Translations under genes and position numbers: made by a program | NCBI GenBank assembly: GCA_051294905.1 | Contig: CM119371.1 | Location: 28,336,001-28,400,000, forward strand | DNA from: Botryllus schlosseri | Taxonomy: Eukaryota | Reading direction: 5' to 3' | DNA: 64,000 nucleotides | Shown: in pieces, positions 8,165 through 54,899 of the stretch | How positions within the stretch are numbered: the stretch's first letter is position 1 | Layout: each line of letters begins with the position of its first letter | The notes under the pieces: model-generated | What the model saw: only the letters and a program-made list of their open reading frames with translations | What the model was told of the DNA's origin: nothing | The model's database searches: none

Positions 8165-11148
8165 TAACACATTCGGATACGATTCAACCTCACTTGCACC
8201 GCGAGTTTGATTTCAAGTCGGTAAATTAACACATTTATTGAATATTTTTATGATTCTAATGACACAACTAGAGTCAACCACTATTCCGGAAGTGGGAAAA
8301 CATGTAGCGATCGCGTAAATAATCCGGAAACGGAGCTGAAAGTTGTTCAAGTCGAGTAATATTCCGTTACAAAAGTATTCGACTCCTAAAAAGATTAGAG
8401 GTAGGACAGAAAGTGACAATTTGTTGGTATTCAAGTCACCACTGTTTTTCGTTGCTTAATATAATTCTTATTATTATTATATCTCGTCGGTGAAAGCGGT
8501 TCTGCGACAAACTAATTACTAAAATATCACCTTACGAGCGATCGGTATATCTGTAACACCAAATCACGAGAGATCGCTATGTCTAAGGCGTTATCTTGTC
8601 AGCGATCGCGGGATTTGCAACCTATTTCACACCTATCGGAGTAAGCGTTATTTCGGAACGCACCTATACCTGAAAACGTTATCTCGTCACCGCACTCATC
8701 TAAATAAGGATACTAGTGTCACACTCACCGTAAATGTTAGGATTGACTCGAATCGGTCATATATCACAATCTGGAATATACACGCTGAGTGAGAACTAAT
8801 CACGTGACTGCTTCCTACAGTTGATGAATATCCAACAAAACCATACCGGCGTTGCCTATACATAAATCACGAATCGCCACCCCACCCGTAAGAATCCTAA
8901 GGTCACTTCACCAGAGATCGCTGTATACCTGAACATCATCTCCACACACCACAACTAAAAGGGCACCCTCAACAACACACACCTTCTGTACGAGAGTCAC
9001 TTCCGCGGAGATCCTTATACCTGAAAGTGTACCAACACACAATGCCTGGAAGGGTGCCATCACCGCTTTACCAACACGAGTTTCGTTGTAGGTCATCACC
9101 AACAGACATGGGGTGATTACTTCATGAATGTAATCGATTGCGATTACGATTACGATTACAGCAAAATCCGCAAATAGTCGATAACGATTACGATTACATT
9201 TGCAAATTAATCACAATTACTCACGATTACATTTATTCTGCTTCTTAGATCTAATGTTATAGAAAATATATTGGAAGACAATATAAGGATTGCGATGAAA
9301 AGGCAATGAGATATAACTTTCTATATATATACGAGGCGTCATTTGCTTGTTACGTCATAATGTACCTATTACCCAACTTTATAGGGGACGATTTATCGCA
9401 CCCACCGGTTTGCATTCTTTCCACGTCCGTAACTGCCGCGCCACAAACTTCCCATTAGGCTGGGGAGCGAGTTCGAATGGGACTCAAAAGTATTTCGTAA
9501 ATCAACATAATTTTCTATTTTCGAGAGATTTAATTAACTTGAAAATTTTATTCGAGCTTCACAATTTAATGTCTCTACTATAGAATGTTCATATTCTATA
9601 GTCTCTACTCTCTATACATATACAACTTGATTTTTAAATGCATACGTCCCCACCTAAGGAAGAAAAACAGGTCTAATACATTGGCATAGGCATTTCGGTG
9701 CCGGCCATTACCGCGCCACGACACACCAAAATACATAGCCTAAGCAGCTTCAGCCAACATGCGACTCCACGAATTGTGCTACGCCGAAACTTTGAGTAAG
9801 TGTTCATTGTCAATAGCCGCGACGGACGGGCGTGACGAATAGTCCTGTCCTTTCAATCTGAGACCCACAATTCAAATGCCACCCGGGCACCCACATGATG
9901 ACAGGCATGACATAAAGACATGATGATTTGTGTGTGAGTAATAAAGTTTGTGTAAATAAAGTAATTACAACAACATGTCAGATATTATAATTGTGAATTA
10001 CGTGCTCCTAGCTCTACCGGTAGATCTGAACATCGGGGACTGGGAGACGATTAAAAATGAATAGTAATATAATGCAATCACCGATATTAGGGACGAAATC
10101 AGTCATCAACCTGAAAATTGATAACCCTATGGCCTATGGGGGACCAATACCTACGATTGGAGTGGGGGATAAATAGCTGAGGTTTTGGTCCTGAATCCAG
10201 CTACAATCCACGCTAACGTGGTGTATAAGCGGATGGTATGGTGACAGCTCCGAATGTTCAGTAAGGAATTACGAGAAAACGATTGGCGCCCCTGCAGTCA
10301 TATGAGAAAGAGTCATCCAACGGGAACATAAAATTTTGCCTTCCACTTAACAGATACTGCAAGCTGCCATTACGAGAAAAGGCAATGAACGGCTCGGTTA
10401 TGATATATATCATCAGCTGTTAGTTTTTAATGCTTAATTGTGGAAATCGTAATGTTTCATTTGACGAGTTCAAAAATTCGCATCTTTGTCGGGTGTACGT
10501 ACGCATACCGCTGCTCGCCAAGCAAGAACGGTCAAACTGCGTTTAACTAAGCATAACCAAACAACATTACATATGTTACTATATGAAATTAGGCAAAGCT
10601 GTGACTATTTTCCTGCTCCGATGAGTGGCGTCTGCAGGGCGGGCGTTCTTACAACCACACTACTAAGTACATGTACTTGTACAATTGTACATCGAATATA
10701 AATTTACTATGCGTCGAAGTGGATACTTGTTACACAATGACGAGCAAAGCTAATACTTCTGACGTAATAATGAGCAGTGGCGTTTGAAAATCAGACGCTG
10801 GTGCTATCAATAAACCTCCTATATTATCTCTTTCTTGTTCAAATGTTCAGTTTATATCATAGTCATATACAAATAAAAAGAAATCGTTCTTTCACAAAGA
10901 AATCGATTAGATATGTGAAGTATAGTCGATTACGATTATTAATCGCGATTGCCCCATGTCTGATCACCAACAGCCTACACCTGAAAAGGTATCATCACCA
11001 GAGATCCCATAAGAAGCCATATTAGTTCACCAGCGATTGGGGTGTAAAAAGGTAGGGTCACCAGCACGGGTTCTCGCGTTAGTTCACCAGGGGGCTCATA
11101 GGAACCATACACACCATGCACACCTCACGGCCGATCTACTGCACTACT
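8165..11148 (+). mobile_element. Diverged relic of a Polinton-like right terminus (interrupted by MITE 9103-10962)
   Basis: 8165-8647 aligns by eye to 52524-52865 (e.g. gacaaactaattac...gagcgatcggta(t/g)atctgtaacaccaaatca). It ends in ...GCACTACT at 11148, preceded by sequence resembling the 53765-53825 terminus. No left end was found. Confidence 0.75.
9103..10962. mobile_element. hAT non-autonomous element, GATTAC-repeat family, copy 1
   Basis: TIR CAGACATGGGG...CCCCATGTCTG; perfect 8-bp TSD ATCACCAA (9095-9102, 10963-10970); subterminal CGATTA arrays. Confidence 0.9.
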
Positions 11149-26055: not shown

Positions 26056-28092
26056 CAGGGTTGTAATGACTCGAGTCATGACTCGACTCGAGTCAGACTC
26101 GAGTCACGATTTTTTTATGACTCGACTTGACTCGAGTCATTTTCTTGAAATGGGAAAATGACTCGACTCGACTCGAGTCAATATTTGGATTGACTCGACT
26201 TGTACTCGAGTCATTACGCATGACTCGACCCAAGTCATTGACTCGGCTTATTTTATATGACTTGAAGATGAAGAAATTTGCGAATCATAATGGCTAGATC
26301 AACGCATCCGACGAATTCTGCCGACATCGCTATTTGTCACCACTGCTTTCGTTGCACTTGTTTCATATCAGATATGCCGCCGTAAAAACAACAGAAAATG
26401 ATACATAGTAGCAATGCATTGTACAAAATCGTCCAGTGATGAAGAGGTAATAGATCCTCCGCAATCAAAGTACTCAAGACTTTTCAATTATACAAGCAAA
26501 CAATTGAATCAAAATTCAATTAGAGCCAATGAAATGACTCAGATGGTGAAGAGACTGATAAGCTCATGTGTAGATTTGAAGGCGATGATTCTTTGCATTT
26601 TTGGGCGACTAGAAAGAATGAGTATTCAATGCTCTTCAGTGTGGTTCAAAAATGCTTGTCAATTCCTGCATCTAGTTCTAGTGCACTAGTGGAACGTGTA
26701 TTCAGTAGATGTGGATTCATTCTACGGCCATGCCGCTTTAACATATTTGAGGATCTCCTTTCCACATTAGTATTTTTGAGGTGTAACTCATTGACTTGAT
26801 CTGCTGTCTGTGAAAACACACAATGCCCCTCGTCCATTTGACGTTTTGTTAGGTATGTGCATTGTGCACGTGAGTAATAATGAATGGCTAATGCTGTGTG
26901 ATGTTTGTACAATATGGCTGTTCTAAAATAACTTTTTTTTTATTTTACTGGGTGGTTACTTGATAAAATTGTTATGTTGCATAAAAGGAACACTGAATCT
27001 GGCTTAATTTAAAAAAAGTGGAATCAATGATGTGAGAGGAGAATATTTTGGATTTGAAAATAAATGGAGTATTTTAGTGAGAAATTCTTTCATATAATAT
27101 AATTACATAGTAGTAAGCCGACTATTTTTTAATATCCAAAACATTCTAATCTAATAACTTCACTTTTTCTAGTTGAAATTGAGTCAAATTTGCTATGAAT
27201 CATATTTTTACACAATGTAACAATATCATGAGATAGCCGGTAAAATTCGAAAATCTCTATTTGAAATTAGTCCAAAATTTTCTTTCATAGCATTGCTTCC
27301 TACTGGTTGGAATTGAGCCAAATTTGATTTTTTAGGCAATCTAGCAATTTTAAGAAGTAGCCGGAAAATTTGAAAAAATGTTTTTGAACAGCCCCATTGT
27401 ACAATTATTTCTCCAATGCTGTAACTGCGATGTAGTCTGTAATGCACTTTAGTATAATCAAAAGGTATCTGTTCTGTTGTCACTGCACAATGCACATAGT
27501 TGCATGCACGCTTTTACAGCATGCTGGCCTGTTATAAATACCTCTACTTAAACATGCATCTATTGATTCTCTATCAACTAGTATCTTGACGTGAATTTGT
27601 TGGTTCTCTATCAGATAGTATGTAGACGTGAATTCGTTGGTTCTCTATCAGCTATCGTCGATGTGCTCATAATAAAAACTGAATGCTTGTATTGGTGATG
27701 TATCAGACTGACAAGAGAGATATTTGATTTTAAGTTCTAAGATTAGTAAAGTTATCTTTAGCATCGGTAAATGAGGCCAGGACATGTCCGTTATCTGCCT
27801 AAATAAACACGTGTCAAGACTCTGATAGGGACAAAATGAGCATGTTTCGCAAACAAGGAATTCGATATCACCCAAGCAGGATTGAAAACATGAGTTGAAC
27901 ATGACTTCAATACTGTGACTTGGACTCGACTCGAGTCATAACACCATGACTCGGACTTGACCCCTTAAACGGTGACTTGGACTCGGACTCGAGTCTGTGA
28001 TGAATTGAAAATGACTCGACTCGACTCGAGTCAATACCACAAAAGTATGATTGACTCGTGACTCGGAACCATGTGACTTGGTTACAACCCTG
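26056..28092 (+). mobile_element. hAT deletion derivative, GACTC-repeat family, copy 1
   Basis: TIR CAGGGTTGTAA...TTACAACCCTG; perfect TSD CTATTTCA (26048-26055, 28093-28100); dense GACTC/GAGTC subterminal arrays. Confidence 0.92.
26566..26799 (+). pseudogene. hAT C-terminal dimerisation domain remnant
   Basis: DSLHFWA...LSIPASSSSALVERVFSRCGFILRP...LVFLRCN; a degraded mirror copy lies at about 29975-30200. Confidence 0.75.
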
Positions 28093-28647
28093 CTATTTCA
28101 ACAACGTGCTCCTTCAAGCATAAAAAGCGGAGAGTTGATGGTAATCGCTGCCAGTGGTAGTGAGTGTGATAGATACGAGGCGGTAAACTGTGCCATCCGT
28201 GTTATTGCTATCAGAACACTTATATAGCAGCGTCGTGAAAGAGTAAGGCACGTAGTGCATATTTACATTGTTATGGTTCGCTCCTGTTGTTTTGATTTTT
28301 GTCGTTGTAGTAGATGACAATCGGCCGAGTATGGTTGGAAAGTTTAAATCAAGAGTTGAGTTATTGTCCTATGCTGTCATTTATATATTTAATTATCTTA
28401 TCCGACACGCATATTTAATACGTAGTTTGAAATTTAACGCTAGCGCTTTCTGTCTAGCATCGTCTTTTACTGCGCTATTAATTCTATGAAACAATGTGTT
28501 TCATTTCGTATATCTGATTATTTTCGGCTTACGTTAATTAATTAGTGATACGTACATATTACTATGTCTAATTTGTACAGAAAACTAATCGCCGGGTAGC
28601 TGACAGATGTCGCAGTGATTTACGTTCTCGGTGTGTAAGGTACAGCA

Positions 28648-30712
28648 CAGGGTTGTAACCAAGTCACATGGTTCCGAGTCACGAGTCAATCTGACTTTTG
28701 TGGTTTTGACTCGAGTCGAGTCATTTTCAATTCATCACCGACTCGAGTCCGAGTCCAAGTCAACGTTTTAAGTGTCAAGTCCGAGTCATAGTGTTATGAC
28801 CGAGTCGAGTCCAAGTCACAGTATTGAAGTCATGTTCAACTTATGTTTTCAATCCTGCTTGGGTGATTTCGAATTCCTTGCTTGCCAAACATGCTTATTT
28901 TGTCCCTATCATAGTCTTGGCACATGTTTATTTAGGCAGATAACGGACAGTTCCTGGCCTCATTTACCGATGCTACAGATAGACGAGACAGGCCGGCAAT
29001 ACGATAACTTTACTAATCTTAGAACTTTAAATCAAATATCTGTCAGTCTGATATATCACAAGTGCAAGCACTCAGTTTTTATTACTAGCACATCGACGAC
29101 CGCTCACAAATAGCTCATAGAGAATTAACGAATTCACGTCTGCATACTATCTGATAGAGAACCTACGAATTCACGTCTAGATACAAGCTGGTAGAAAATC
29201 ATCAAATAAACGTTTCTGTAGAGGTACGGTTTTGCTTTCACATTAAATCAGGTGGTTGACCAGAAAAATGTCAACTTTCCTGCTCAGCTCCCGAAGTAGT
29301 CGCCGGAGCGTTACTTTAGTGCTGATTTACTGTTATCTTAGTCGAATTTTCCCTACCTTTACGAAAAATTCTCAAAAATGAGGGCAGAATCATAAAAAGG
29401 AGGCTACTTCTTAAAATTGTTAGATTATCTGAAAGAACTTAAATTTAGCTCAATTCCAACCAGTAGAAAGCAATGCTAAGAGAAAATATTTTGAATTAAT
29501 TACAAATAGAGACTTTCGAATTTTACCGGCTACCTCATGATATTGTTAGATTGTGTAAAAGTATGATTCATAGCAAATTTGGCTCAATTCCAACTAGAAG
29601 AAGCGAAGTTATTAGAGTGGAATATTTTAAATATGAAAAAATAGTCGACTTACTACTAGTATGTAATTATATTATATGAAATCATTTCTCACTAAAAATA
29701 CTCCACGTATTTTCAAATCCAATATTTTCTCCTCTCATATCATTGATTCCACTATTTAAAATTAAGCCAGATTCAGTGTTCTTTTTATGCAACGTAACAA
29801 TTTTATCAAGTAGCCACCATGTAGAATAAAAAAGAAGTTATTTTTGATCGGCCCTATTGTACAAACATCACACAACATTAGCCATTCATTATTACTCACG
29901 TGGACAATGCACATATCTAACAAAACGTCAAATGGACGGAGGGTATTGTGTGTTTTCACAGACAGCAGATCAAATCAATGAGTTATACTTGAAAAATACT
30001 AAAGTGGAAAGGAGATTCCCATATATGTTGAGGCGGCATGGCCTTAGAATAATCCACATCCACTGGATACACGTTCCACTGGTGCATTAGATGCAGGAAT
30101 TGAAAAGCAATTTTTAACCACACTGAAGAGCATTAGATACTCATCCATTCTAGTCGCCCAAAAATACAAAGAATCATCACCTTCAAATCTACATATGAGC
30201 TTTTCAGTCTCTTCCAAGTAGGCTACTTCACCATCTGAGTCATTTCATTGGCTCTAATTGGACTTTGCTTCGATTGTTTGCTTGTATAATCGAAAAGTCT
30301 TGAGTACTATTACCTCTTCACCACGGGATTATTTTGTACAATGCATTGCTCTTTGCTACTATGTACCATTGTCTTTTGTTTTTACGACGGCATATCTGAT
30401 ATCAGACGAGTGCAACGAAAGCAGTGGTGACAAATAGCGATGTCGACAGAATTCGTCACATGCGTTGATCTAACCATTGTAATTCGCAAATTTCTTCACC
30501 TTCAAGTCATATAAAATAAGCCGAGTCAATGACTTGAGTCGAGTCATGCGTAATGACTCGAGTACAAGTCGAGTCAATCCAAATATTGACTCGAGTCGAG
30601 TCGAGTCATTTTCCCAATTCAAGAAAATGACTCGAGTCAAGTCGAGTCACAAAAAAAATCGTGACTCGAGTCTGACTCAAGTCGAGTCATGACTCGAGGC
30701 ATTACAACCCTG
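28648..30712 (-). mobile_element. hAT deletion derivative, GACTC-repeat family, copy 2 (inverted)
   Basis: Same TIRs; its own perfect TSD GTACAGCA (28640-28647, 30713-30720); reverse complement of 26056-28092 over most of its length. Confidence 0.92.
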
Positions 30713-38394: not shown

Positions 38395-38454
38395 AACGTT
38401 AGTAGTGTATATGATCGCTCGTGACTTGGTGTTTTTTGCATGGGGCTCTTATGG

Positions 38455-38680
38455 GCCCGCTCGACCGGTGCCTCGAAACTCGTGTTGAACCGGTGACCCT
38501 TTTGACCCCCCCTTCCGCTCGACCGGTGCCTGGGTTGGTATAGGCATCTCTCGACCGGTAACCCTTTTCGGTATAGGGATCGCTCAACCGGTGCCTCGAA
38601 ACTCGTCTTGAACCGGTGACCCTTTTCGGTATATGCATCACTCAACCGGTGTTAGTATAGCCATCTCTCGACCAGTGTTG
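38455..38680. repeat. Subterminal ACCGGT-containing repeats (mirrored at about 53545-53770)
   Basis: Repeated cgctc(g/a)accggtgcctcgaaactcgt...gaaccggtgaccctttt units. Confidence 0.75.
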
Positions 38681-38935
38681 AATATGTATCAAGTAAATAG
38701 TCATGTGAATGAATCTTTGTTAATGTGTATATCGTAAATTATTTTATATGATGTAGCTCAGTCGTGGCAAATGACCGATCGTGTTCTAAGTCTTTCCTCA
38801 CTATTGATCGCTAGCTGAATAATACTTCAGATCGGACTATTCGCACCTTGTATACCGCTGTTTCGCACCTATAGAATAGTCTGCTGTTCACAGTCACAAC
38901 AAGAATCACAAGTATACACATTACACATTCATTTA

Positions 38936-39367
38936 TTACTCTGAAATCAAACTCTTCACAAAAGCACGCACAATCGTATCATTCACTTTTTTATCATCAC
39001 CAAAATAATTCAAGTATTCCTTGGCTGAAAATCCTTGAGCTCGTTTTATCAAGAATGCTATAGCACGATCTCCACACACATCCGAAGTTATACTCTGTAA
39101 CTGTTTCCCGGTCACGGAAAATTCATCCGGCTCCAGGAATTCGATTATGTGAGGTTTTAGTGGTCCGAAACCTAGTGAATCATGAAAATGTGTATCGTCA
39201 TCTCTGTACACCCAGTGAGACCCAGGCAAACTCGATTCATCGTAATTAATGGTGATAGCGAATTTTCCGCTAGTTGGTTTCTTTGGTAATTGGTCTGCTG
39301 GATAAGTTCCTAGATATAGACTTCGTGTATCAGGATGGTTATAGAGAATATCATTGATCTCGCTTAT
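38936..39367 (-). pseudogene. Polinton adenain-like cysteine protease (left-arm copy), no ATG
   Basis: Mirror of 52859-53290 (H/Q difference: KPHII versus KPQII). Confidence 0.8.
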
Positions 39368-42300
39368 TCAAAAAGGTGTGAAATAATTTTAAAATCCTAC
39401 GACCGCTCACAGGGTAATGCTCCAGACATAGCGATCGTTCATGATTTGGTGTTACAGACATACCGATCGCTCACAAGGTAATATTTCTGTAATTAGTTTG
39501 TCACAGAGCCGTCGCAGACGGTGATTCGTAAACCAACAATTTGACACTTTCTGGTGATCGCTATATGTTTTTGACACTTTGGAACGTGGTTGACTTTAGT
39601 TGTATGATAAGAATGATGCGAATATTCAAGCAATGTATCAATTTGACAACTTGAAATGAAACTTACTACACAGCTCAAGTTGATTCGTATCTGAATGTGT
39701 TAATTCGGTACAATTCTAATTAATTTGAGAAATCTTTTTAACGTGATCTTTTGATTCGACCGTAACCTGAATAATACTGACGCCGACTTTCAGTCACATT
39801 GAATTATTCACACATTCGCGCCGCTGTTTTCACACCTATAGAATCAATACCAACTATAACTCTACAAGAATCAAGAATCACAAGTATGTGCATTATACAG
39901 TTATTGTCTTTGTCAACTTGAAATCAAACTCTTAATACAAACACGCATCTTATCACTTGTCAACTCTATCATGAAAATCCTCGGACCTGTGTTATTAAGA
40001 ATGTTATAGTACGGCGTCGGAATCCACTCGCGAGATGCACTAAAGGTAGGTAAATTGAGATCACCCAAAATGAAATATTTGGACTTTGACATAGTCTGAA
40101 TTGAAATAGATTGACAAACATGACTACCAACTTTCAACCCATACATATTTAGAGATTATGCGCAGGTTGATTTGAAACAAGTAATGAAACCATACAACTC
40201 TATTCACGACTGAGTTTTCCGTTTGTCAAATAGAGTTTCAGTAAATACCATCATGATATTTAAATGTGTTACTACACACAATAGAATCAATCAATGAAAT
40301 AGCACCTGTTGTAAATATTTCTTACTTGACAACCACTTGTACATACCGCGATCGAGTTGGGACACGATGAGTTAAATCGGAATATTTCAATCTATTTGTC
40401 GAAACCTTGAACAAGCTATCTGGTTATTTTTTCGTTGCAATTGAGTTAACGGAAATAATATTACGTCTCGACATCTTACCATCTTACCATACTCCAAAGA
40501 GCCAACAAGGAAAAACCTTGTCAAGTAAATCGTTTGTAACTCACCCAATCAACTCAAACAGTATCAGTATGAAACCAGTCAAGCATACACGAGTCCATAC
40601 AATCGCTACAATCTAAAATCCATAGCAAGTTCGGTTTTAGGCATATACCGTCAACTCGTCTTTTTTGTTCAACTGTAAAAGTCGTTACTATTCTGCGAGA
40701 CAAAGAAATTACTATGCGATATATTTTGTAAGATAAAAGTAATTACTTCTCGGTGCCGGCGACTTGAGATTAACATAATATGTTTGAGTATGCGAGATTT
40801 GAAAGTCTGCCCAACATGTTGAGAATTCATTTCTTACAATCGAACGCAGGTGTTATATTGAAAATTATCATGATGTAAACATAAGGATTGACACATTGAT
40901 TTGACATATGTAATAGTTGATCATGACTTGACTATTAAATTGTTTGCGTTAATTAGACTCGGCGTTGTGGTAAAGATTATTGTGACAGCAACAAACTTTT
41001 CAGTATCATTGCTATTAACATATTGAGTTGTAAACTATGTGTGTCTAAAATGTTCTCGATTGGAAAATTATTCAGCCTTGGTACAAACCACGCAGTGTAT
41101 TGTGGATATCAGGAAATATTTTACAAATGTAATTGTCTGCAGTAAACAAGACTAAAGATGAAACAACAATTTCCTTTGTTGAACAATAACCGGTGCAATA
41201 CTTTGTTGTTGGTGAGAATTGAAACACTTTCGCGCATTACCTGGTGTCAAGATATCACACTAGGTGAATTGACATACCACCATTTGATTAATGCTTAATC
41301 CGTTCGCATCATTTCACACACACTTTGATCATTACAAAAAAACAAATTGGAATATGTTTGCTAGGCACCACCTATTCAGCTATACTTGAGTAATACAGAA
41401 ACCTCTCAGCATTAATAAAATCGAAATGTGCGCTACACTGAAATCTACAAAATGTGTTTGTATTGCTGTTCATAGTAGTGATATCGATTTATACCTCCAT
41501 CTAACCAAACTACTGAGAGTCGTTGTCAATTTACATGACGTTCACTGATTACATACTAGAACTATTTGTGCAACGCACACGATCAGAGAAATTGGACATT
41601 TTTCCATTGCCATTCGTCAAAGTAAATGTCGTCACAATAATCAGTCACTAAAAGACCATATACTTGTATGTGATTGAATCGCCGACAATTAACTCGGTAA
41701 ATCAAACCCCTGAGAAATTTCACTCAGTCATTGGATAGGAAACAGCGTCGCTTGATCGGTGTGAGTCGTTTTTTCTAAATACTAATCATATCTGTCCAGC
41801 CAAGAACAATTTTCACTCACTTGGGTAACGAAACCAGTGTCCAATATCAATACAAGATATTTTCGTCACACAAATATAATCAACTTCACTCGATATTCCC
41901 GTACTACGAAACTGTACAAAGGTTACATGTTTTTGTATGACATGGAATTAATACCGATCGATGTAACCGTATTGGAAATAACTTTTAAACAAACACACTC
42001 TACGTGGTTAACATTCTCGTCGATTCTATTGTGATTAATGTATACTTCATGTGATCTGGATTCATTTCGATATGGCTAAACATTCAACCTCGACGGATAC
42101 GAATTGTCACACACTCAAGTAATATCATACCAAATAGTTATTTACAAGACACAGAAAATTTGTTTTGGTCGTTTCGACTTTATTACTGGAGATACTCATC
42201 ACTTCGCTTAATACAATCTAGATTTAAACTCCATCGAACCTTTGGTGTCTATCGTTTTGCTGGATACGAATTATGTTAGTCTAAGAGTACACAATTTTCA

Positions 42301-43489
42301 CTATCTTGGGTTATGAACTCAGTGTGTTAGCGATCATTCAATATTTTGTAGTATCAACTAGCTACTTCGTAGGATACGTATGATCATCCTCACAACTCTT
42401 ACAAAAGTACGAAGGATATTTACATTACACAAAGTAATCGACTTTACTCGATATCCTCACACTGCGAAACTGAATGGTTGGTTTGACTCTACAAACTGTT
42501 CTGATGTCACAAGAACTTTTTCATACGAATGGTTACGTATCTAAATATTCAAATAATCCAACACACGACTATAGTACTTACAGAAATATCAAATATCATA
42601 GTTCTTGTAACAAAGTTGTATAAGTATAATGTTTATCGTAAGTCCTACATAGCCATGATATCCGTCCGAGTTTGACTTTTAGAAAACATTATACCGACAT
42701 CGCGACATCTTTCAAAATTAAAACCACGGTGACTGCTTCAGAGACCTACCAATGATATTGCAGTAATACAGTTACTTCCATAAAAGAGTATGTGTACGAC
42801 TTACTTACCACAAATCTAACGCACAAAACAATTTACTTTACTAACGAGAAGCGCCGAGCCTCACATCAAAACAACTAGAAAGTGGAACTATATTAAAAAA
42901 CGTCGCTAACCTTTGTGCACCAGCTGTAAATCACACAAGCAACATGTTTCAAGATTCTGGTTATTGAAAAACGTTAAAGTGTTTCTCCTACACCAAGTCG
43001 TTATGTTGACGAAAGCGTATATTGTAATACCATGATCGATTTGCATTCGTTGGTCACAAACTGTCACTACTCTAAATAATTATTTTTCACTCAAACACAA
43101 AAGCATACTTGTCGCCAATCGTTTTCATCAAGCACGAGTTCAAGAAGCTTACTTACTACGACATGAATTGTTATTTTTATGTTGTGTAAATAGGTAATAA
43201 TTAATTTTAGTAACACTATATCAATGTCATCGAGTTGTGCGAATAGATTTACATGTGGTTTTAGTCGAAGCATACAGCATGACTCTTCTCTCTTGTACAA
43301 CAACTCGCTAATCGAAATGCATGCATTCACATTTAAACAACGATCTTGTTTCGTCACGCGAAAAATATCTTCACCGTCGCGACACTCTGATACTCTGCAC
43401 AAGATGTTTAAATCCTTTTCACACTCATAATAGTACACTAACAAGACACCAACGTCAAGCGACAACGTTTAACAATACCAATGACACTG

Positions 43490-43990
43490 AACATACGACG
43501 CTTACCCCAGTAAAAATATCATTTTCGTTTGGATAACTGACGTTTACCTGTGTAAAATTACCATATTTGTTTGGAACTCTACCGTTTCCGAGTAAAAATA
43601 CATTTACACATGGAGATCCGCCGTTTACCGAGTAAAAAATATCAATATCACCTGGAGATCCACCGTTACGTGAGTAACAAAACCATTTTCCTTTGGTGAT
43701 CTATCGTTTACCCAGAGTAACAAAACCATTTTCACTTGGAAATATATTTTTTCCCTGGGTAACAAACCATTTTCACTTGGAAATATATTTTTTCCCTGAG
43801 CAACAAACCATTTTCACTTGGAAATATATTTTTTCCCTGAACAACAAACCATTTTCACTTGGCGGTCCGTCGTTTACCTGAGTAAAAATATCATTTTCCT
43901 TTGGAGATCTGGCGTTTACCCAGTGTAACAATGCATTTTCTCTTGGCCATCTAGCTTTTCCTAGAGTAACAAAACCATTTCATTTTGAAA
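43490..43990. repeat. 41-44 bp minisatellite (mirrored at about 48245-48740)
   Basis: Core unit ccattttcacttggaaatatattttttccctg(g/a)...aacaaa occurs about 3 times near-perfectly, flanked by degenerate units (ggagatc...cgtttacc...agtaaaaa). Confidence 0.8.
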
Positions 43991-45398
43991 TCTGACAAAC
44001 ACACCTGCCAATTTGGTATTTGTTGTATTGATGGCAGTTTGAAATAGATTACAACGAACAGTGACAGAAATATATACGGACTACCAGTTTCAAAGTATTC
44101 CCGCATCAGTCGTATCACATCAATATCATCGGTTAACCACATGAAATAACAATATGCCGTTGTACACCGAAATGCATGTTTTGGAAAATTGGACAATAGG
44201 CTTCGATAGGTCTGTGATGTCCGGGTTCGTACTTTAGTTTTTGCACAGAGTCCATACGTCTTAATAAAACACCACCTCGACTTTGGTACCTGGCTGGTAC
44301 ATGGATAACGGTGGTCGGAAATCGATGAATATAGGTTCTCGTCGTGCTAACAGTTCCGGGCTACTTGTGATTTTTCTCACGCATGTTTACTATATTGTGT
44401 CACTCTTTATTGGTCAATACATATCCCACCGTTCAGTCTGAAATCCGAAACCCGAGCAAGTATGAACCGGATCCGGATATCAACTCTGAATCAAAAAACC
44501 AATGAAACATGTCACACCCTGTGTTTCCATGGAAGTAACAAGACATTACACATCAAGTATACTTCGCGATTGTTCATAGATACCAAGTATTCGCGTAAAC
44601 GAGGTGTGTGACATTACATACATCATGGATAACATCATGGCCGGCATTACAAGCATCATGGATGACAAATTCATGTTCTCAAGTCTCATACATGAACCGA
44701 CTCTGTACATTCAATGTGGGGTAGATGACTTGGAGACAGACAAACACACATATTTGACCGTAACATGATCTAAGCACGAACCGACATGTATTCAACTTGG
44801 TGAAAAATGAGTCGCATCGTATTTCACGATATTACATTCCCTTTTGTGGTTCACACCTTGATTTTGCTTACATCGTGATCCAGACCTCGGAGTATAGTAA
44901 AATCGGGATATGTAGTTTAATTACTTGCTCACTACCCGGTGTGTGTTGGTGGTGGTCATACCCTGCAAACTTTTTTTCTGAGAACGTAGTGTTTCACCTT
45001 ACATCAGTCGGTTCAATGTATGTACCGGGTTGTGAAAGCTGTCGCTGTGTTGACTATGTGTCACAATCAATACTAAACACGGTAATTCGTTACTCGTCGA
45101 AACGTCGCAGTCAGACATCGTTAACAGCGATTCCGCGTATGGAAATCTTAAATTCGATTGCGGTTTTGTAATGTAATCCGGGTTACTGTGTTTCTGTGGT
45201 GTGAAGACTAAATTCGTGTTGATCCCCCCCCCCCCCCCCCTGCAAGAGTGCGATGTCTATTTCACACCTAGAGTAATTATAAAACGCATCTTCGAAACCT
45301 TTGGTCTAGTTCATCTGCTTGCATGTCGAAACGGACCATAACCACAAGACTCTAACCCACCACATCCGTGGTTTCAGTTGATCGTATCGAAGAATATC

Positions 45399-45674
45399 AT
45401 GTCTATCCGTTTTACCACCCACAGATTTCTCCATCCTCACACTTTAGTGCTAAGACACAGACAAGATGCGGTTGTGGAAATATTGAAAATGAGAAAGCAG
45501 ACCTTGGTGTCATTTGATTTGGATTTTACACCCGATGAACCCATCATTCGTACTGTGCATTGGGGTGCGGATTCTATCGTTGATGTCGAAGGAAAAGAAA
45601 TGTACAGATTTGTTGGTGTCGTGGATATTCAACGAAAATCGGGGTACATGATTGTACGCGGTTACCGTATATGA
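45399..45674 (+). CDS. Hypothetical 91-aa protein in the unique loop of the palindrome
   Basis: ATG-initiated, uninterrupted ORF (MSIRFTTHRFLHPH...IVRGYRI) with TATAAAA at 45278-45284 upstream. No family recognised. Confidence 0.4.
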   Translation: MSIRFTTHRFLHPHTLVLRHRQDAVVEILKMRKQTLVSFDLDFTPDEPIIRTVHWGADSIVDVEGKEMYRFVGVVDIQRKSGYMIVRGYRI

Positions 45675-45924
45675 CTGTGAAGATATCGCTATACATAACG
45701 TGCTGTTCACCGTATCGATCGCACCAACGAATATCCATGTTACGGTCAAATATGTGTGTTTGTCTGTCTCCAAGTCATCTACCCCACATTGAATGTACAG
45801 AGTCGGTTCATGTATGAGACTTGAGAACATGAATTTGTCATCCATGATGCTTGTAATGCCGGCCATGATGTTATCCATGATGTATGTAATGTCACACACC
45901 TCGTTTACGCGAATACTTGGTATC

Positions 45925-47647
45925 CAGGGGCGTATCTAGCCGGAAAAAATGGGGGGGTACCTTTAGAAAAGGGGGGTGTTTTAAAAAGGAGAGGGTGTTC
46001 CTCGTTCTAACCGATTGATCAGGATAAATGCAAGCAAAAATGCAGATATTACCATGGTATGATGATCTTACTCGTGTTTGTGACTTCTTCATTCGCATAT
46101 ACAAAACTAAGTACAACTAAACATATCATTATAACCCGTAAGTGATGGTAACAGCGGAAAGAGAGACAGCCAGATATCTTGACCTTAATTACCAAAGCGA
46201 GGATGTTATCACGACAGTGCGCGCAGATCATATTACAGCACAGCGGGAGATCTCTCCATTCGCGCTCAAATACGAACACTCGACTGTAAAGACACGCAAA
46301 TGAATTATAGTCTGTTTTCGTTTGTGTCAACTGTTCAGCCTGTTCTTACACATGATCTGGATTAATTTTGTTCTAAATCAATATGATATCTACTGTCTGT
46401 CAAGATAGTGTAGTATTTTTGGTGTGTGGAGATGGTAAACGTCACGTGAATAACAGCGGCCCGGCGCAGGCTTAGGCTCGCGATCAAAATGCACTCCTAA
46501 ATGCGTTTGCCATGCAAAAGTGACAATTGCGAATTGTCAAGGCAAAGACTATAACTTCTCGTTATTACAACATTACATTGAACATTGCCTGCGCTAGGGA
46601 CGCTTGCCTGATTTATCGCGTCTCCAACAAGCCTAGTTTCACTCGCTTGAACAAATGAACAATCACATCAGCAGTAGACCCGGTGCGTACTGTACCATCG
46701 CTGCCTGCACTATCGCATCTGCATTGGCGCACACGATATTATCGCTTGCCCACACAATCGCATCTGCAACAGGCCTGGTACGAAAGATATCATCGCTGGC
46801 CATGTGGCCAACTATCGCGTCTCGAGCCTAGCATGCGGTGGCTCCGCTCTCTCGAGCCTAGCATGCGTTGGCTCCAATCCAGGGATATCTATCCCTGGCT
46901 GCAATCTCTCGATGGCTTGGTGACAATGCCGTTAGGTGTTCGCTGTTTAGCGATTGTAATTAGAGTGACATTGCTGAACTGAATGACATCGAATGTCCGC
47001 AGACATGTGCGATTGTGCGTGCGCCGTGCGTGCGTAAGTGAATTCCGCTAATATCTAAACATAACCATCAGAAGATGTGTGTCAACGGTCAAGGCTTGAG
47101 TTGTAAAAGACGAGAAAGGTTTGAACAACCTGAAACCTGTGCCATTATAGAACAGAGTCTAACTCGGACATTTTGCCTGCGCAAATCGTCGCCGAGGTTA
47201 CGTAATACGCCTTGATAAGCGGCGTATTTAATTGTTCGCTAGCGATCAGGGACTCGCTAGTTGACAGCACTTCCGTTCTAAACATTTGTTGATAGTAAAC
47301 TAACACGAAAAACCAACTCGCGCGGCATCGAAATTTCATGGCGTCTAATGCGAGTGCCATGTAACTGGATAACAGCGTTCAGATGAGGCGAGAGAGCCAT
47401 GCGACGATACGCTTTTCGGGCTTCCGTAGACGAGAGAACAATACGAGAAAAACGCATCACCGCACTGCGTTGTTTGCTCGATCGCTGGCGTGATGATGCT
47501 GCGCGGCAATACGGGGATTACCGATTTATTAGAATAAGAAATATTGGATCAATGGAAATAGATTTAGGAAGTGGGATAATCGAGCTTGGAAACGGGGCGG
47601 GGGGGTACCGGACACCGATTACCCCCCCCCCCCTGAATACGCCCCTG
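45925..47647. mobile_element. hAT non-autonomous element (1723 bp) inserted in the right arm only
   Basis: TIR CAGGGGCGTAT...ATACGCCCCTG; perfect 8-bp TSD TTGGTATC (45917-45924, 47648-47655). The left arm shows the empty site (gataccaa at 44579-44586). No transposase. Confidence 0.93.
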
Positions 47648-50600
47648 TTGGTATCTATGAACAATCGCGAAGTATACTTGATGTGTAATGTCTTGTTACT
47701 TCCATGGAAACACAGGGTGTGACATGTTTCATTGGTTTTTCGATTCAGAGTTGATATCCGGATCCGGTTAATACTTGCTCGGGTTTTGGATTTCAGACTG
47801 AACGGTGGGATATGTATTGACCAATAAAGAGTGACACAATATAGTAAACATGTGTGAGAAAAATCACAAGTAGCCCGGAACTGTTAGCACGACGAGAACC
47901 TATATTCATCGATTTCCGACCACCGTTATCCATGTACCAGCCAGGTACCAAAGTCGAGGTGGTGTTTTATTAAGACGTATGGACTCTGTGCAAAAACTAA
48001 AGTACGAACCCGGACATCACAGACCTATCGAAGCCTATTGTCCAATTTTCCAAAACATGCATTTCGGTGTACAACGGCATATTGTTATTTCATGTGGTTA
48101 ACCGATGATATTGATGTGATACGACTGATGCGGGAATACTTTGAAACTGGTAGTCCGTATATATTTCTGTCACTGTTCGTTGTAATCTATTTCAAACTGT
48201 CGTCAATACAACAAATACCAAATTGGCAGGTGTGTTTGTCAGATTTCAAAATGAAATGGTTTTGTTACTCTAGGAAAAGCTAGATGGCCAAGAGAAAATG
48301 CATTGTTACACTGGGTAAACGCCAGATCTCCAAAGGAAAATGATATTTTTACTCAGGTAAACGACGGACCACCAAGTGAAAATGGTTTGTTGCTCAGGGA
48401 AAAAATATATTTCCAAGTGAAAATGGTTTGTTGCTCAGGGAAAAAATATATTTCCAAGTGAAAATGGTTTGTTACCCAGGGAAAAAATATATTTCCAAGT
48501 GAAAATGGTTTTGTTACTCTGGGTAAACGATAGATCACCAAAGAAAAATGGTTTTGTTACTCACGTAACGGTGGATCTCCAGGTGATATTGATATTTTTT
48601 ACTCGGTAAACGGCGGATCTCCATGTGTAAATGTATTTTTACTCGGAAACGGTAGAGTTCCAAACAAATATGGTAATTTTACACAGGTAAACGTCAGTTA
48701 TCCAAACGAAAATGATATTTTTACTGGGGTAAGCGTCGTATGTTCAGTGTCATTGGTATTGTTAAACGTTGTCGCTTGACGTTGGTGTCCTGTTAGTGTA
48801 CTATTATGAGTGTGAAAAGGATTTACACATCTTGTGCAGAGTATCAGAGTGTCGCGACGGTGAAGATATTTTTCGCGTGACGAAACAAGATCGTTGTTCA
48901 AATGTGAATGCATGCATTTCGATTAGCGAGTTGTTGTACAAGAGAGAAGAGTCATGCTGTGTGCTTCGATTAAAACCACATGTAAATCTATTCGCACAAC
49001 TCGATGACATTGATATAGTGTTACTAAAATTAATTATTACCTATTTACACAACATAAAAATAACAATTCATGTCGTAGTAAGTAAGCTTCTTGAACTCGT
49101 GCTTGATGAAAACGATTGGCGACAAGTATGCTTTTGTGTTTGAGTGAAAAATAATTATTTAGAGTAGTGACAGTTTGTGACCAACGAATGCAAATCGATC
49201 ATGGTATTACAATATACGCTTTCGTCAACATAACGACTTGGTGTAGGAGAAGCACTTTAACGTTTTTCAATAACCAGAATCTTGAAACATGTTGCTTGTG
49301 TGATTTACAGCTGGTGCACAAAGGTTAGCGACGTTTTTTAATAAAATTCCACTTTCTAGTTGTTTTGATGTGAGGCTCGGCGCTTCTCGTTAGTAAAGTA
49401 AATTGTTTTGTGCGTTAGATTTGTGGTAAGTAAGTCGAATACATACTCTTTTGTGGAAGTAACTGTATTACTGCAATATCATTGGTAGGTCTCTGAAGCA
49501 GTCACCGTGGTTTTAATTTTGAAAGATGTCGCGATGTCGGTATAATGTTTTCTAAAAGTCAAACTCGGACGGATATCATGGCTATGTAGGACTTACGATA
49601 AACATTATACTTATACAACTTTGTTACAAGAACTATGATATTTCTGTAAGTACTATAGTCGTGTGTTGGATTATTTGAATATTTAGATACGTAACCATTC
49701 GTATGAAAAAGTTCTTGTGACATCAGAACATTTTGTAGAGTCAAACCAACCATTCAGTTTCGTAGTGTGAGGATATCGAGTAAAGTCGATTACTTTGTGT
49801 AATGTAAATATCCTTCGTACTTTTGTAAGAGTTGTGAGGATGATCATACGTATCCTACGAAGTAGCTAGTTGATACTACAAAATATTGAATGATCGCTAA
49901 CACACTGAGTTCATAACCCAAGATAGTGAAAATTGTGTACTCTTAGACTAACATAATTCGTATCCAGCAAAACGATAGACACCAAAGGTTCGATGGAGTT
50001 TAAATCTAGATTGTATTAAGCGAAGTGATGAGTATCTCCAGTAATAAAGTCGAAACGACCAAAACAAATTTTCTGTGTCTTGTAAATAACTATTTGGTAT
50101 GATATTACTTGAGTGTGTGACAATTCGTATCCGTCGAGGTTGAATGTTTAGCCATATCGAAATGAATCCAGATCACATGAAGTATACATTAATCACAATA
50201 GAATCGACGAGAATGTTAACCACGTAGAGTGTGTTTGTTTAAAAGTTATTTCCATTACGGTTACTTCGATCGGTATTAATTCCATGTCATACAAAAACAT
50301 GTAACCTTTGTACAGTTTCGTAGTACGGGAATATCGAGTGAAGTTGATTATATTTGTGTGACGAAATTATCTTGTATTGATATTGGACACTGGTTTCGTT
50401 ACCCAAGTGAGTGAAAATTGTTCTTGGCTGGACAGATATGATAAGTATTTAGAAAAAACGACTCACACCGATTAAGCGACGCTGTTTCTTATCCAATGAC
50501 TGAGTGAAATTTCTCAGGGGTTTGATTTACCGAGTTAATTGTCGGCGATTCAATCACATACAAGTATATGGTCTTTTAGTGACTGATTATTGTGACGACA

Positions 50601-52858
50601 TTTACTTTGACGAATGGCAATGGAAAAATGTCCAATTTCTCTGATCGTGTGCGTTGCACAAATAGTTCTAGTATGTAATCAGTGAACGTCATGTAAATTG
50701 ACAACGACTCTCAGTAGTTTGGTTAGATGATGGAGGTTCAAATCGATATCACTACTATGAACAGCAATACAAACACATTTTGTAGATTTCAGTGTAGCGC
50801 ACATTTCGATTTTATTAATGCTGAGAGGTTTCTGTATTACTCAAGTATAGTTGAATAGGTGGTGCCTAGCAAACATATTCCAATTTGTTTTTTTGTAATG
50901 ATCAAAGTGTGTGTGAAATGATGCGAACGGATTAAGCATTAATCAAATGGTGGTATGTCAATTCACCTAGTGTGATATCTTGACACCAGGTAATGCGCGA
51001 AAGTGTTTCAATTCTCACCAACAACAAAGTATTGCACCGGTTATTGTTCAACAAAGGAAATTGTTGTTTCATCTTTAGTCTTGTTTACTGCAGACAATTA
51101 CATTTGTAAAATATTTCCTGATATCCACAATACACTGCGTGGTTTGTACCAAGGCTGAATAATTTTCCAATCGAGAACATTTTAGACACACATAGTTTAC
51201 AACTCAATATGTTAATAGCAATGATACTGAAAAGTTTGTTGCTGTCACAATAATCTTTACTACAACGCCGGGTCTAATTAACGCAAATAATTTAATAGTC
51301 AAGTCATGATCAACTATTACATATGTCAAATCAATGTGTCAATCCTTATGTTTACATCATGATAATTTTCAATATAACACCTGCGTTCGATTGTAAGAAA
51401 TGAATTCTCAACATGTTGGGCAGACTTTCAAATCTCGCATACTCAAACATATTATGTTAATCTCAAGTCGCCGGCACCGAGAAGTAATTACTTTTATCTT
51501 ACAAAATATATCGCATAGTAATTTCTTTGTCTCGCAGAATAGTAACGACTTTTACAGTTGAACAAAAAAGACGAGTTGACGGTATATGCCTAAAACCGAA
51601 CTTGCTATGGATTTTAGATTGTAGCGATTGTATGGACTCGTGTATGCTTGACTGGTTTCATACTGATACTGTTTGAGTTGATTGGGTGAGTTACAAACGA
51701 TTTACTTGACAAGGTTTTTCCTTGTTGGCTCTTTGGAGTATGGTAAGATGGTAAGATGTCGAGACGTAATATTATTTCCGTTAACTCAGTTGCAACGAAA
51801 AAATAACCAGATAGCTTGTTCAAGGTTTCGACAAATAGATTGAAATATTCCGATTTAACTCATCGAGTCCCAACTCGATCGCGGTATGTACAAGTGGTTG
51901 TCAAGTAAGAAATATTTACAACAGGTGCTATTTCATTGATTGATTCTATTGTGTGTAGTAACACATTTAAATATCATGATAGTATTTACTGAAACTCTAT
52001 TTGACAAACGGAAAACTCAGTCGTGAATAGAGTTGTATGGTTTCATTACTTGTTTCAAATCAACATGCGCATAATCTCTAAATATGTATGGGTTGAAAGT
52101 TGGTAGTCATGTTTGTCAATCTATTTCAATTCAGACTATGTCAAAGTCCGAATATTTCATTTTGGGTGATCTCAATTTACCTTTAGTACATCTCGCGAGT
52201 GGATTCCGACGCCGTACTATAACATTCTTAATAATACAGGTCCGAGGATTTTCATGATAGAGTTGACAAGTGATAAGATGCGTGTTTGTATTAAGAGTTT
52301 GATTTCAAGTTGACAAAGACAATAACTGTATAATGCACATACTTGTGATTCTTGATTCTTGTAGAGTTATAGTTGGTATTGATTCTATAGGTGTGAAAAC
52401 AGCGGCGCGAATGTGTGAATAATTCAATGTGACTGAAAGTCGGCGTCAGTAATATTCAGGTTACGGTCGAATCAAAAGATCACGTTAAAAAGATTTCTCA
52501 AATTAATTAGAATTGTACCGAATTAACACATTCAGATACGAATCAACTTGAGCTGTGTAGTAAGTTTCATTTCAAGTTGTCAAATTGATACATTGCTTGA
52601 ATATTCGCATCATTCTTATCATACAACTAAAGTCAACCACGTTCCAAAGTGTCAAAAACATATAGCGATCACCAGAAAGTGTCAAATTGTTGGTTTACGA
52701 ATCACCGTCTGCGACGGCTCTGTGACAAACTAATTACAGAAATATTACCTTGTGAGCGATCGGTATGTCTGTAACACCAAATCATGAACGATCGCTATGT
52801 CTGGAGCATTACCCTGTGAGCGGTCGTAGGATTTTAAAATTATTTCACACCTTTTTGA

Positions 52859-53290
52859 ATAAGCGAGATCAATGATATTCTCTATAACCATCCTGATACA
52901 CGAAGTCTATATCTAGGAACTTATCCAGCAGACCAATTACCAAAGAAACCAACTAGCGGAAAATTCGCTATCACCATTAATTACGATGAATCGAGTTTGC
53001 CTGGGTCTCACTGGGTGTACAGAGATGACGATACACATTTTCATGATTCACTAGGTTTCGGACCACTAAAACCTCAGATAATCGAATTCCTGGAGCCGGA
53101 TGAATTTTCCGTGACCGGGAAACAGTTACAGAGTATAACTTCGGATGTGTGTGGAGATCGTGCTATAGCATTCTTGATAAAACGAGCTCAAGGATTTTCA
53201 GCCAAGGAATACTTGAATTATTTTGGTGATGATAAAAAAGTGAATGATACGATTGTGCGTGCTTTTGTGAAGAGTTTGATTTCAGAGTAA
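52859..53290 (+). pseudogene. Polinton adenain-like cysteine protease (right-arm copy), 143 open codons, no ATG
   Basis: EINDILYNHPDTRSLYLGTYPADQLP...INYDESSLPGSHWV...FHDSLG...KQLQSITSDVCG...NDTIVRAFV carries His, Asp, Gln and Cys in the order and context typical of Polinton/adenovirus maturation proteases. Confidence 0.82.
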
Positions 53291-53825
53291 TAAATGAATG
53301 TGTAATGTGTATACTTGTGATTCTTGTTGTGACTGTGAACAGCAGACTATTCTATAGGTGCGAAACAGCGGTATACAAGGTGCGAATAGTCCGATCTGAA
53401 GTATTATTCAGCTAGCGATCAATAGTGAGGAAAGACTTAGAACACGATCGGTCATTTGCCACGACTGAGCTACATCATATAAAATAATTTACGATATACA
53501 CATTAACAAAGATTCATTCACATGACTATTTACTTGATACATATTCAACACTGGTCGAGAGATGGCTATACTAACACCGGTTGAGTGATGCATATACCGA
53601 AAAGGGTCACCGGTTCAAGACGAGTTTCGAGGCACCGGTTGAGCGATCCCTATACCGAAAAGGGTTACCGGTCGAGAGATGCCTATACCAACCCAGGCAC
53701 CGGTCGAGCGGAAGGGGGGGTCAAAAGGGTCACCGGTTCAACACGAGTTTCGAGGCACCGGTCGAGCGGGCCCATAAGAGCCCCATGCAAAAAACACCAA
53801 GTCACGAGCGATCATATACACTACT

Positions 53826-54899
53826 AACGTTGTCGCTGCCTTCCCACGCGGGGGAACTCGCCGACAAATGACTTGGATTGCAATCGTTTCCACGTGATTG
53901 GGTGGGGATCGTAGAGCTGCGGGTTCTGATACTTGCTTGGTTGTGCTCTTTCACAACCTGTGGTTCGCTAGAATCTTTACCAACATGGCTTGAGCATACA
54001 TCCGCATACGTTTCAAATCTTGTCTTTGCTTCTTTGTACTGTACATTTTCCCTTTCGCAGATAACTTGGATTTTTGCTTCTCTTTTGTACGCAGGGCATC
54101 CCGCATATGCTGCACTGTGCGTTCCATTGCAGTTAATACAATTTCTCACCGACGAGTTACATGTTTTGTACTCATGTTCTTGACTACCACATCTAGTACA
54201 AGATTGCTTTCCTCGGCAGTACTTACTGGTATGCCCGTATCTATTACATTTGTAGCAGCGAAGCGGTGGAGGGTTGTACGGTCTTGTTCTAAGTGATAGG
54301 TATCCGATGAAGACTCGTTCAGGTGGTGTGGGAGAATCAAACCCCAGTAATATACAATAGCTTGGCTCATATCCTTTGTCCGTCCTTGTTTTCAGTCTCT
54401 TGACGAAAGTCACTCCATACTCTTTCAGATCTTGTCGTATTTCGTCTTCAGTTGTCTCAATGTCGATTCCATATATAACCGCTCTGGAGTTATAGACTTT
54501 GCTTTCCGTTTTGTACATCACCGCTTTGACTGGTATATTGACCTTTTTAGCAGCATCGGTTAAAGTGTCTTGTTCAAGAAGCTTCGTCAATTGCTTTTTA
54601 CTCTTACACGTAACTAGGAGATCGCCAGACGGCATCACTTTAATCGTTTCGTAATCACCAATGGTGTTGTGCAAGCAGCTGTGCACCTTTGTTGGGTGAT
54701 AGAACTTCATCGATCTACCCAAACCTTGTAATACAACCTTCATCTCTTCCTCAACTACTTGTAAGCTTGATCTCAATTTTGCTGGTGGACTATTAGTATC
54801 CCCGTCATCTGTCGATGTCCTGTCAGGTTTGCGTTTCATTGAAGTGTTTTTGGTCCAAGATAAATCCACAATCTCCTGTGAGGAATGTGACTCTGACAT
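53826..54899 (-). pseudogene. LINE ORF1 (gag-like nucleic-acid-binding protein), N-terminal 358 codons
   Basis: Pre-C2HC-like region followed by three knuckles: RCYKCNRYGHTSKYC, CTRCGSQEHEYKTC, CINCNGTHSAAYAGC. Disrupted by the Polinton-like insertion. Confidence 0.9.

Follow-up and report, generated by a model that had tools for sequence, protein, structure and literature searches.

We analysed a 64,000-nucleotide stretch of the Botryllus schlosseri genome (contig CM119371.1, positions 28,336,001 to 28,400,000; hereafter the window), in which a palindromic element occupies positions 38401 to 53825 and consists to about 93% of inverted repeat. This element is one copy of a large palindromic family inserted at multiple sites in the same genome. 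The family probably represents an old and abundant group of Polinton satellites, with arms of about 6.4 kb and a loop of about 1 kb, which is mobilised in trans; dependence on enzymes supplied in trans follows from the lack of any enzyme encoded by the element itself.

Self-comparison of the window resolved the element into inverted-repeat blocks that follow one another collinearly (38395-44767 against 45736-53831), with 99-100% identity and an interruption only at 45925-47647. The element has the termini AGTAGT and ACTACT (ends AGTAGTGTATATGATC...) and is flanked on either side by AACGTT; outside these hexamers the flanks are unrelated, with 6 of 30 matches when compared as an inverted repeat. 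AACGTT is self-complementary, therefore a target-site duplication (TSD) and six additional bases of inverted repeat are indistinguishable at the window copy alone. After removal of a nested insertion, the right arm measured 6,359 bp and the complete element 13,694 bp. A MAFFT alignment of the arms contained, in 6,370 columns, 43 mismatches (0.68% substitutions), of which 29 were transitions and 14 were transversions; in addition, it showed three indels (4, 3, and 7 bp). A preliminary description of this DNA had reported the termini, the TSD, the arms, three indels, a loop of 968 bp, and the length without insertion; self-comparison and alignment reproduced all of these measurements.

The terminal 300 bp of the window element were used to search the 495-Mb assembly (219 contigs), yielding at least 77 matches (40 of 1,143 candidates scored). 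Among the matches listed, 15 plus/minus pairs were located on other contigs at distances of 12.4-20.2 kb, and 10 of these pairs were retrieved in full. All 10 copies, spread over eight contigs, possess long inverted arms; these are collinear over 5.3-6.6 kb in seven copies (C14a, C15a, C4a, C13a, C8a, C13b, and C12a), and three copies (C5a, C11a, and C11b) show rearrangement or partial deletion. A script detected a direct 6-bp TSD flanking the AGTAG... ends in every one of them. Nine TSDs are perfect (CAGGGG, TCCGCA, CTTGTA, AACGTT, GACGTA, TACGGG, TATGTC, TTCGTC, and TGCGTC) and one agrees at five of six positions (CACCTG/CACTTG), while the outer flanks are unrelated (5-13 matches of 30). The copies are 12,396-16,678 bp long, and in five of them the loop, as calculated from the coordinates, spans 942-984 bp. 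In an eleventh pair (C11, 19.9 kb), the ends are 99.9% identical across the 1,750 bp compared. Furthermore, a 2-kb probe from inside the window arm gave at least 41 matches (40 of 3,186 candidates scored); those listed, the two arms of the window itself excluded, showed 96-98% identity, many forming inverted pairs about 7 kb apart. The preliminary description had suggested a search for palindromic copies at other sites with different 6-bp TSDs, and such copies were thus found.

Some additional observations were made on sites and ends. The dinucleotide CG is present in 8 of 12 TSDs from 12 elements, and AACGTT flanks two elements at unrelated sites (the window element and C15a), which may reflect a target preference. 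The exact 24-nt terminus of the window element has only 16 occurrences in the genome at ≤1 mismatch, as compared to dozens of arm-internal siblings at 96-98% identity; it appears that the outermost ends change more quickly than the arms. In C13a (L041/L042) the two termini agree over about 25 nt only, the right end then resembling the window type and the left end the C14a type, and the ends may be hybrid or recombined.

An autonomous Polinton was found in the same genome by way of the protease-like frame P0002, which lies near each end of the window element. P0002 had at least 150 genome matches (150 of 505 candidates scored); the matches scored comprised 21 inverted minus/plus pairs and about 107 singletons, mostly with an open frame of 188 amino acids (aa). 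One singleton belongs to an element of 18,542 bp, referred to as the helper, with terminal inverted repeats (TIRs) of 588 bp at 95% identity and a perfect 6-bp TSD (AACACC). It encodes a 359-aa integrase (Pfam rve, E=2.5e-15; Chromo, E=4.7e-9) and a 215-aa ATPase with weak matches to AAA_14 and Pox_A32 and a match to a PHROGs ATPase. The protein-primed polymerase pPolB is represented by a 455-aa frame followed by an 841-aa frame in the same reading frame with one in-frame stop between them; the 841-aa frame passes the cut-off of PF03175 (DNA_pol_B_2) with E=2.7e-8 and 33.6 bits against a required 25.8. Four frames of 432, 126, 225, and 301 aa between protease and integrase matched nothing in Pfam or PHROGs and are possibly candidates for capsid proteins. 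A passage of PMC5499653 defines Polintons by the presence of a pDNAP and an integrase; the helper encodes a pDNAP as well as an rve integrase and hence is a Polinton in the sense of that passage. A second copy of autonomous type, recognised from its ends, measures 15.7 kb with TIRs of about 536 bp. The preliminary description had proposed to look for autonomous Polintons with the same termini; with the helper, an autonomous element whose terminus is of the same kind and whose TSD measures 6 bp is present in this genome.

Helper and palindromes are linked by their ends. The first 50 nt of the helper agree with the left terminus of C4a at 47 positions, and at 41 positions (ungapped) with its right terminus, where 1 nt is deleted; the first 16 nt are identical to both termini of C5a, C15a, C4a, and C13b. 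The remaining copies, including that in the window, carry variants of an AGTAGT-N-TATA-N-GATCGCTCG terminus. Furthermore, 707 bp of the window element (38655-39361) align over 723 columns with the protease end of the helper (L053:710-1432) at 91.6% identity and take in 143 of 147 protease codons. In C8a and C12a, 914-915 bp of the opposite helper end are present in both arms at 95.3-97.6% identity and cover 208 of the 217 codons of the last helper gene. Comparison of 44 helper frames with the window arms by tblastn gave matches limited to the protease-like frame and to frames inside the TIR region; matches to pPolB, integrase, ATPase, or capsid frames were absent. Specifically, the 841-aa and 455-aa frames (E≤1e-3) and the helper proteins other than the protease and the last gene product matched neither the window arm and loop nor the other palindromic loci (L031-L052), and the 359-aa rve-chromo frame was unmatched in the window element. 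The helper-related part of each arm is confined to roughly the outer 1 kb, and either end of the helper can serve.

P0002 is 93.8% identical to residues 45-188 of the 188-aa helper frame; in comparison with 147-aa relatives, its first residues are missing, the start methionine among them, and a gap of two residues lies next to a conserved GSHW. It matched nothing in Pfam and nothing useful among PDB sequences. An AlphaFold model of the protease frame (predicted local distance difference test, pLDDT, 64) had the adenovirus proteinase 4ekf as best Foldseek match, although weakly (E=0.046), adenain entries making up 5 of the first 12 rows; VIA-align gave a likewise weak fold match with 4wx4_A (Z=4.0, residues 1-70 only). 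H53, Q95, and C102 are invariant across the alignment of this frame.

The longest frame within the window element has 143 aa, and none of its eight longest frames matched Pfam. That no pPolB, integrase, ATPase, or capsid gene can be recognised had already been stated in the preliminary description and was confirmed by tblastn, but the same description had overlooked a conserved open reading frame (ORF) of 91 aa in the loop, P0001. No fewer than five other copies have a homologue of P0001 in their centre, and one more copy gave a partial match. The ratio of nonsynonymous to synonymous substitution rates (dN/dS) was 0.18-0.30 in 17 pairs across subfamilies with a dS of 0.64-1.10; judged from these values, P0001 is under purifying selection with a dN/dS of about 0.2. 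In the genome, P0001 had at least 150 matches (150 of 1,188 candidates scored), 143 of the 150 without stops; it was not found in the helper. A word-index search returned three 91-aa relatives with 69-87% identity, predicted by gene callers on other public assemblies, and HMMER over 1.84 billion representatives returned one relative of 91 aa with 87% identity.

Most genomic P0001 matches, at 85-87% identity, lie in a 149-aa open frame and are arranged as inverted pairs. One such pair was retrieved; it represents a second palindromic family, C15p, and among the matches scored this class is the most abundant carrier of P0001-like ORFs. C15p has the ends AGTAGTGTCATGATCC and the TSD CTCGTA/CTCGTG (5 of 6 positions). 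Each of its arms holds one module of window-type loop and inner arm which contains a P0001-like ORF and is enclosed by an inverted repeat of 165 bp. Fold-back priming classically makes use of a short inverted repeat whose halves are separated by about 0.9 kb of spacer; the giant palindrome presumably arose from a strand that folded at the 165-bp repeat and was extended back to the terminus, and such events presumably recur.

The arms of the palindromes were compared within and between copies. For the inner 800 bp, left and right arm of one copy were mutually nearest in six of six copies (99.2-100% identity), whereas different copies were only 74-97% alike, that is, 3-26% of positions differed. 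Over the complete arms of the six copies aligned, identity within a copy ranged from 99.3 to 99.94%; substitution divergence was 0.061% in C15a (4 mismatches), 0.062% in C14a (4), 0.11% in C13b (7), 0.16% in C12a (11), 0.175% in C8a (11), and 0.68% in the window element (43). Since the arms are alike within a copy while copies are far less alike, the arms evolve in concert. By their inner arms, C8a groups with C15a and C13b (95-96%) and C12a with C14a (92%). The helper right-end module occurs only in C8a and C12a, which belong to separate clades; hence, there were at least two gains or losses of this module, every one of them affecting both arms. Since loops of 942-984 bp recur in five other copies, palindrome and loop are older than the divergence of the subfamilies, and the similarity of the arms has been maintained from then on. 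Across the six copies, arm mismatches were not depleted near the termini; therefore, the 748 mismatch-free terminal bases of the window element are probably due to chance.

The preliminary description had proposed a non-autonomous Polinton/Maverick derivative, made by copying one end back on itself and possibly a snap-back defective viral genome. The first part is borne out by the AGTAGT terminus of the family, the 6-bp TSD, and the lack of a replication, integration, or capsid gene. A simple snap-back copy of the helper genome does not agree with the finding that only about 0.7 kb near each end, in an arm of 6.4 kb, matches the helper. An element that retains a gene under selection is not merely defective; in addition, its copies are abundant and differ by 3-26% in their inner arms. 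Given that dS in the loop ORF reaches about 1.1 and that the inner arms differ to this extent, the palindromic lineage is evidently old rather than derived from a fresh snap-back. The expected near unit length was also found, the 11 copies measured being 12.4-16.7 kb long as compared to 15.7-18.5 kb for the two autonomous copies. These sizes are compatible with a packaging constraint and prove nothing. The description had also considered that transcription would give double-stranded RNA and could silence the helper; a bulk RNA run provided 106 reads, of which 103 lay only partly on the stretch and most were chimeric, and was uninformative on expression or double-stranded RNA.

As to the mechanism, we assume that the helper integrase would insert the satellite in trans and that the protein-primed polymerase of the helper would copy it as a linear molecule. 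In adenovirus, the displaced strand forms a panhandle by which the duplex end is rebuilt. The displaced single strand of the satellite may correspondingly snap into a 6.4-kb hairpin, rebuilding a duplex end for re-initiation and allowing mismatches in the stem to be corrected; alternatively, the polymerase might turn back at the loop and copy the new strand. By either route each cycle would make the arms alike anew, and after insertion they would diverge by drift. The reiteration AGT-AGT at the terminus fits jumping-back initiation as known from protein-primed replication. Template switching or recombination may supply new end modules from helpers, with subsequent copying into both arms, and a need to fit into the helper capsid may underlie the size of 12-17 kb. 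A more far-reaching reading, in which the family is a hyperparasite with protein-primed replication via an obligatory hairpin, near-unit-length packaging in helper capsids, and a 91-aa factor favouring the satellite or restraining the helper, is put forward tentatively as a possibility.

The similarity of the arms could also originate in the chromosome. Conversion between palindrome arms is known from sex-chromosome palindromes and plastid inverted repeats. The same family with integration in trans might therefore undergo only excision and integration, its arms being homogenised by intrachromosomal gene conversion and no hairpin replication taking place. Arms that are 99.3-99.94% alike fit this explanation, as does the fact that no replication intermediate was observed. 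Arm divergence, however, spreads about 11-fold (0.06-0.68%) and is highest in the window element, in which, alone among the six aligned copies, arm collinearity also has a large break, namely the nested insertion in one arm. Such a spread looks clock-like rather than like an equilibrium and lends modest support to drift after insertion over continuous conversion in place. Similarly modest is the weight of the helper-end modules in both arms of C8a and C12a, whose acquisition and duplication seem tied to contact with a helper. Conversion as the sole cause is considered a serious but less likely alternative.

A fold-back transposon family using a transposase of its own that is yet to be found, and having merely captured end fragments of Polintons, would account for the about 85% of each arm that is unrelated to the helper, and for C15p, which contains the same small ORF although it agrees with the helper only in the first 9 of 16 terminal bases. 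Against this stand a terminus common to helper and palindromes, the part that an integrase would have to recognise (47 of 50 nt at the left end of C4a), a TSD length that is 6 bp throughout, in the helper as well as in 10 of 10 copies, and the lack of a transposase-like frame in any copy; P0001 with its 91 aa would be too small for a DDE enzyme. We regard this explanation as very unlikely. A single snap-back or inverted duplication in place after ordinary Polinton insertion, or an assembly artefact, has practically no probability left: the palindromic and thus ambiguous flanking hexamer of the window element would permit it, but 10 independent loci on eight contigs with the same architecture and their own TSDs described as non-palindromic, dozens of further siblings, and the conserved loop length rule it out.

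Several results weigh against a palindromic satellite family served by Polintons, or limit what can be concluded about it. Gene conversion in place would equally keep the arms alike, and extrachromosomal, hairpin, or encapsidated forms were not observed in this computational analysis. About 5.4 kb of each arm have no detectable origin and are unrelated to the helper. None of the 16 occurrences of the exact window terminus was shown to be on an autonomous copy. The in-frame stop in its pPolB means that the helper copy examined is no proof of a working helper. A genome-wide profile scan with PF03175 remained blank, as did its control, and whole-genome counts from it are unreliable because the helper ORF passes the Pfam cut-off when scanned directly. 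P0001 could not be assigned to a family by Pfam (E up to 10), PHROGs, or the protein atlas, had no relatives beyond the three 91-aa proteins, and gave no usable fold with AlphaFold (nine sequences, pLDDT 36.6). Finally, the copies examined comprise 12 of the 15 paired loci and the window element.

The palindromes were further compared with known systems. Foldback (FB) transposons likewise have very long inverted arms and a small centre. In Drosophila and other animals, FB arms consist largely of tandem subrepeats, and the TSD is 9 bp. TRF reported four rows for the left arm and loop of the window element, two of which overlap and constitute one 479-bp array of 41-bp units, the others being 81 and 51 bp; tandem arrays therefore fill only about 0.6 kb of the 6.4-kb arm, which, beside a TSD of 6 bp, rules out an FB-type element. 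Adenovirus defective DNA with large inverted repeats, reportedly described by Daniell and Mullenbach in 1978, belongs to the snap-back or copy-back defective viral genomes. Such genomes, in the part of PMC13506859 that deals with snap-back forms, resemble the window element in being palindromes with two identical ends, in their dependence on a helper, and in a possible replication advantage. They differ in being short-lived by-products composed of helper sequence only, whereas the window element is integrated in the germline and shows deep subfamilies, foreign arms, and a selected gene.

With autonomous Polintons/Mavericks the window element shares AG-initial termini with AGT reiteration, a 6-bp TSD, a similar length, and the end segment of about 0.7 kb at 91.6% identity; in contrast to them it has no pPolB, integrase, ATPase, or capsid gene, and its TIR is 6.4 kb instead of the 588 bp of the helper. 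Lacking both proteins named in the definition quoted from PMC5499653, it is a derivative of Polintons in terms of that passage and not a member. As a non-autonomous derivative of a resident Polinton, it shows a terminus shared at the family level and multiple insertions. The nearest published case found is that of butterfly polintons, for which a portion of the preprint 10.1101/2025.02.07.637071 reports TIRs of about 2 kb containing hexon and adenain genes. On that account their TIR, too, has extended inward, starting at the adenain end, and each element thereby has the gene twice; however, those elements are coding and apparently autonomous with TIRs as a minor part, whereas the window element is inverted repeat for about 93% and its arms are mostly non-coding. 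Virophages and transpovirons, as outlined in a section of PMC5499653, are also small linear TIR-bearing elements dependent on another virus-like element, but they have no detected genes in common with the palindromes, and the helper in the present case is itself a Polinton. Palindromic Polinton derivatives were not found described in the full-text literature, Repbase and subscription journals lying outside this search; nor was there a Polinton paper among 10 listed on long inverted repeats and hairpin RNA.

The features of the window element, the helper, and C15p are compiled in Table 1. The nested insertion is bounded by an 8-bp TSD (TTGGTATC at 45917-45924 and 47648-47655) and has the inverted ends CAGGGGCGTAT...ATACGCCCCTG; an 8-bp TSD and short CAG-initial TIRs are features of hAT elements. 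Its frames had no Pfam match and included no transposase frame, hence this hAT-like insertion is non-autonomous.

Table 1. Positions of the features discussed. Plain numbers refer to the window.
Feature	Position	Strand	Remarks
Left TSD AACGTT	38395..38400	.	same hexamer at 53826-53831
Left arm, 6,367 bp	38401..44767	+	99.3% identity to right arm by substitutions; about 35% G+C inside
Terminus AGTAGTGTATATGATCGCTCG and subterminal short repeats (ACCGGTG...CCCTTTT units)	38401..38700	+	
Helper-derived segment (protease end of autonomous Polinton)	38655..39361	+	91.6% identity
Adenain-like protease remnant P0002, 143 codons	38939..39367	-	
41-bp tandem array, 11.5 copies, left arm	43502..43980	.	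mirror at about 48254-48732; inverted pairs
Unique central loop, 968 bp	44768..45735	.	
Loop ORF P0001, 91 aa and stop	45399..45674	+	coding 45399-45671
Innermost part of right arm, 189 nt	45736..45924	-	100% identity to left arm
Nested hAT-like insertion, 1,723 bp	45925..47647	.	later than palindrome
Remaining right arm	47648..53825	-	
Mirror copy of protease remnant, right arm	52859..53287	+	99% to P0002; G000:C1:28388859-28389287
Right TSD AACGTT	53826..53831	.	matches left-flank hexamer
Autonomous Polinton (helper), 18,542 bp	L053:377 to L054:8918 (G000:C5:885676-904217)		found via one P0002 singleton
C15p, second palindromic family	L051:2195 to L052:8137 (G000:C15)		about 15.9 kb, arms 7.8 kb at 99.7%

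Elsewhere in the window, a solitary terminus-like motif, AGTAGTGCAGTAGATCGG, is located at 11129-11148 on the minus strand, and a stretch of 151 bp at 8497-8647 shares 81% identity with arm positions 961-1111; the two may be relics of one further member of the family. An older fold-back element of about 4.6 kb (26062-30707) consists of four inverted blocks at 88-94% identity around an 867-bp centre. Its ends begin with CAGGGTTGTAATG, its arms are rich in GACTCGAGTCA units, and it is unrelated to the Polinton family.

The life cycle of Polintons is, according to a passage of PMC5499653, uncharacterised by experiment, and copying by the protein-primed polymerase is presumed. Halves of 6.4 kb which are re-made alike while the copies diverge by up to a quarter constitute a natural experiment on Polinton replication; such concerted arms are hard to explain by simple cut-and-paste and fit a step in which a single strand folds back. 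If the hyperparasite reading is true, the regeneration of arms and the swapping of ends would be the first sequence-level trace of actual Polinton replication. The palindromic family furthermore presents a Polinton with a long-lived parasite of its own that keeps a private gene, which adds a further layer to the network of viruses, virophages, and transposons. For the genome of B. schlosseri, hundreds of palindromes of 13-16 kb are potential sites of fragility, of hairpin RNA, and of errors in assembly and annotation.

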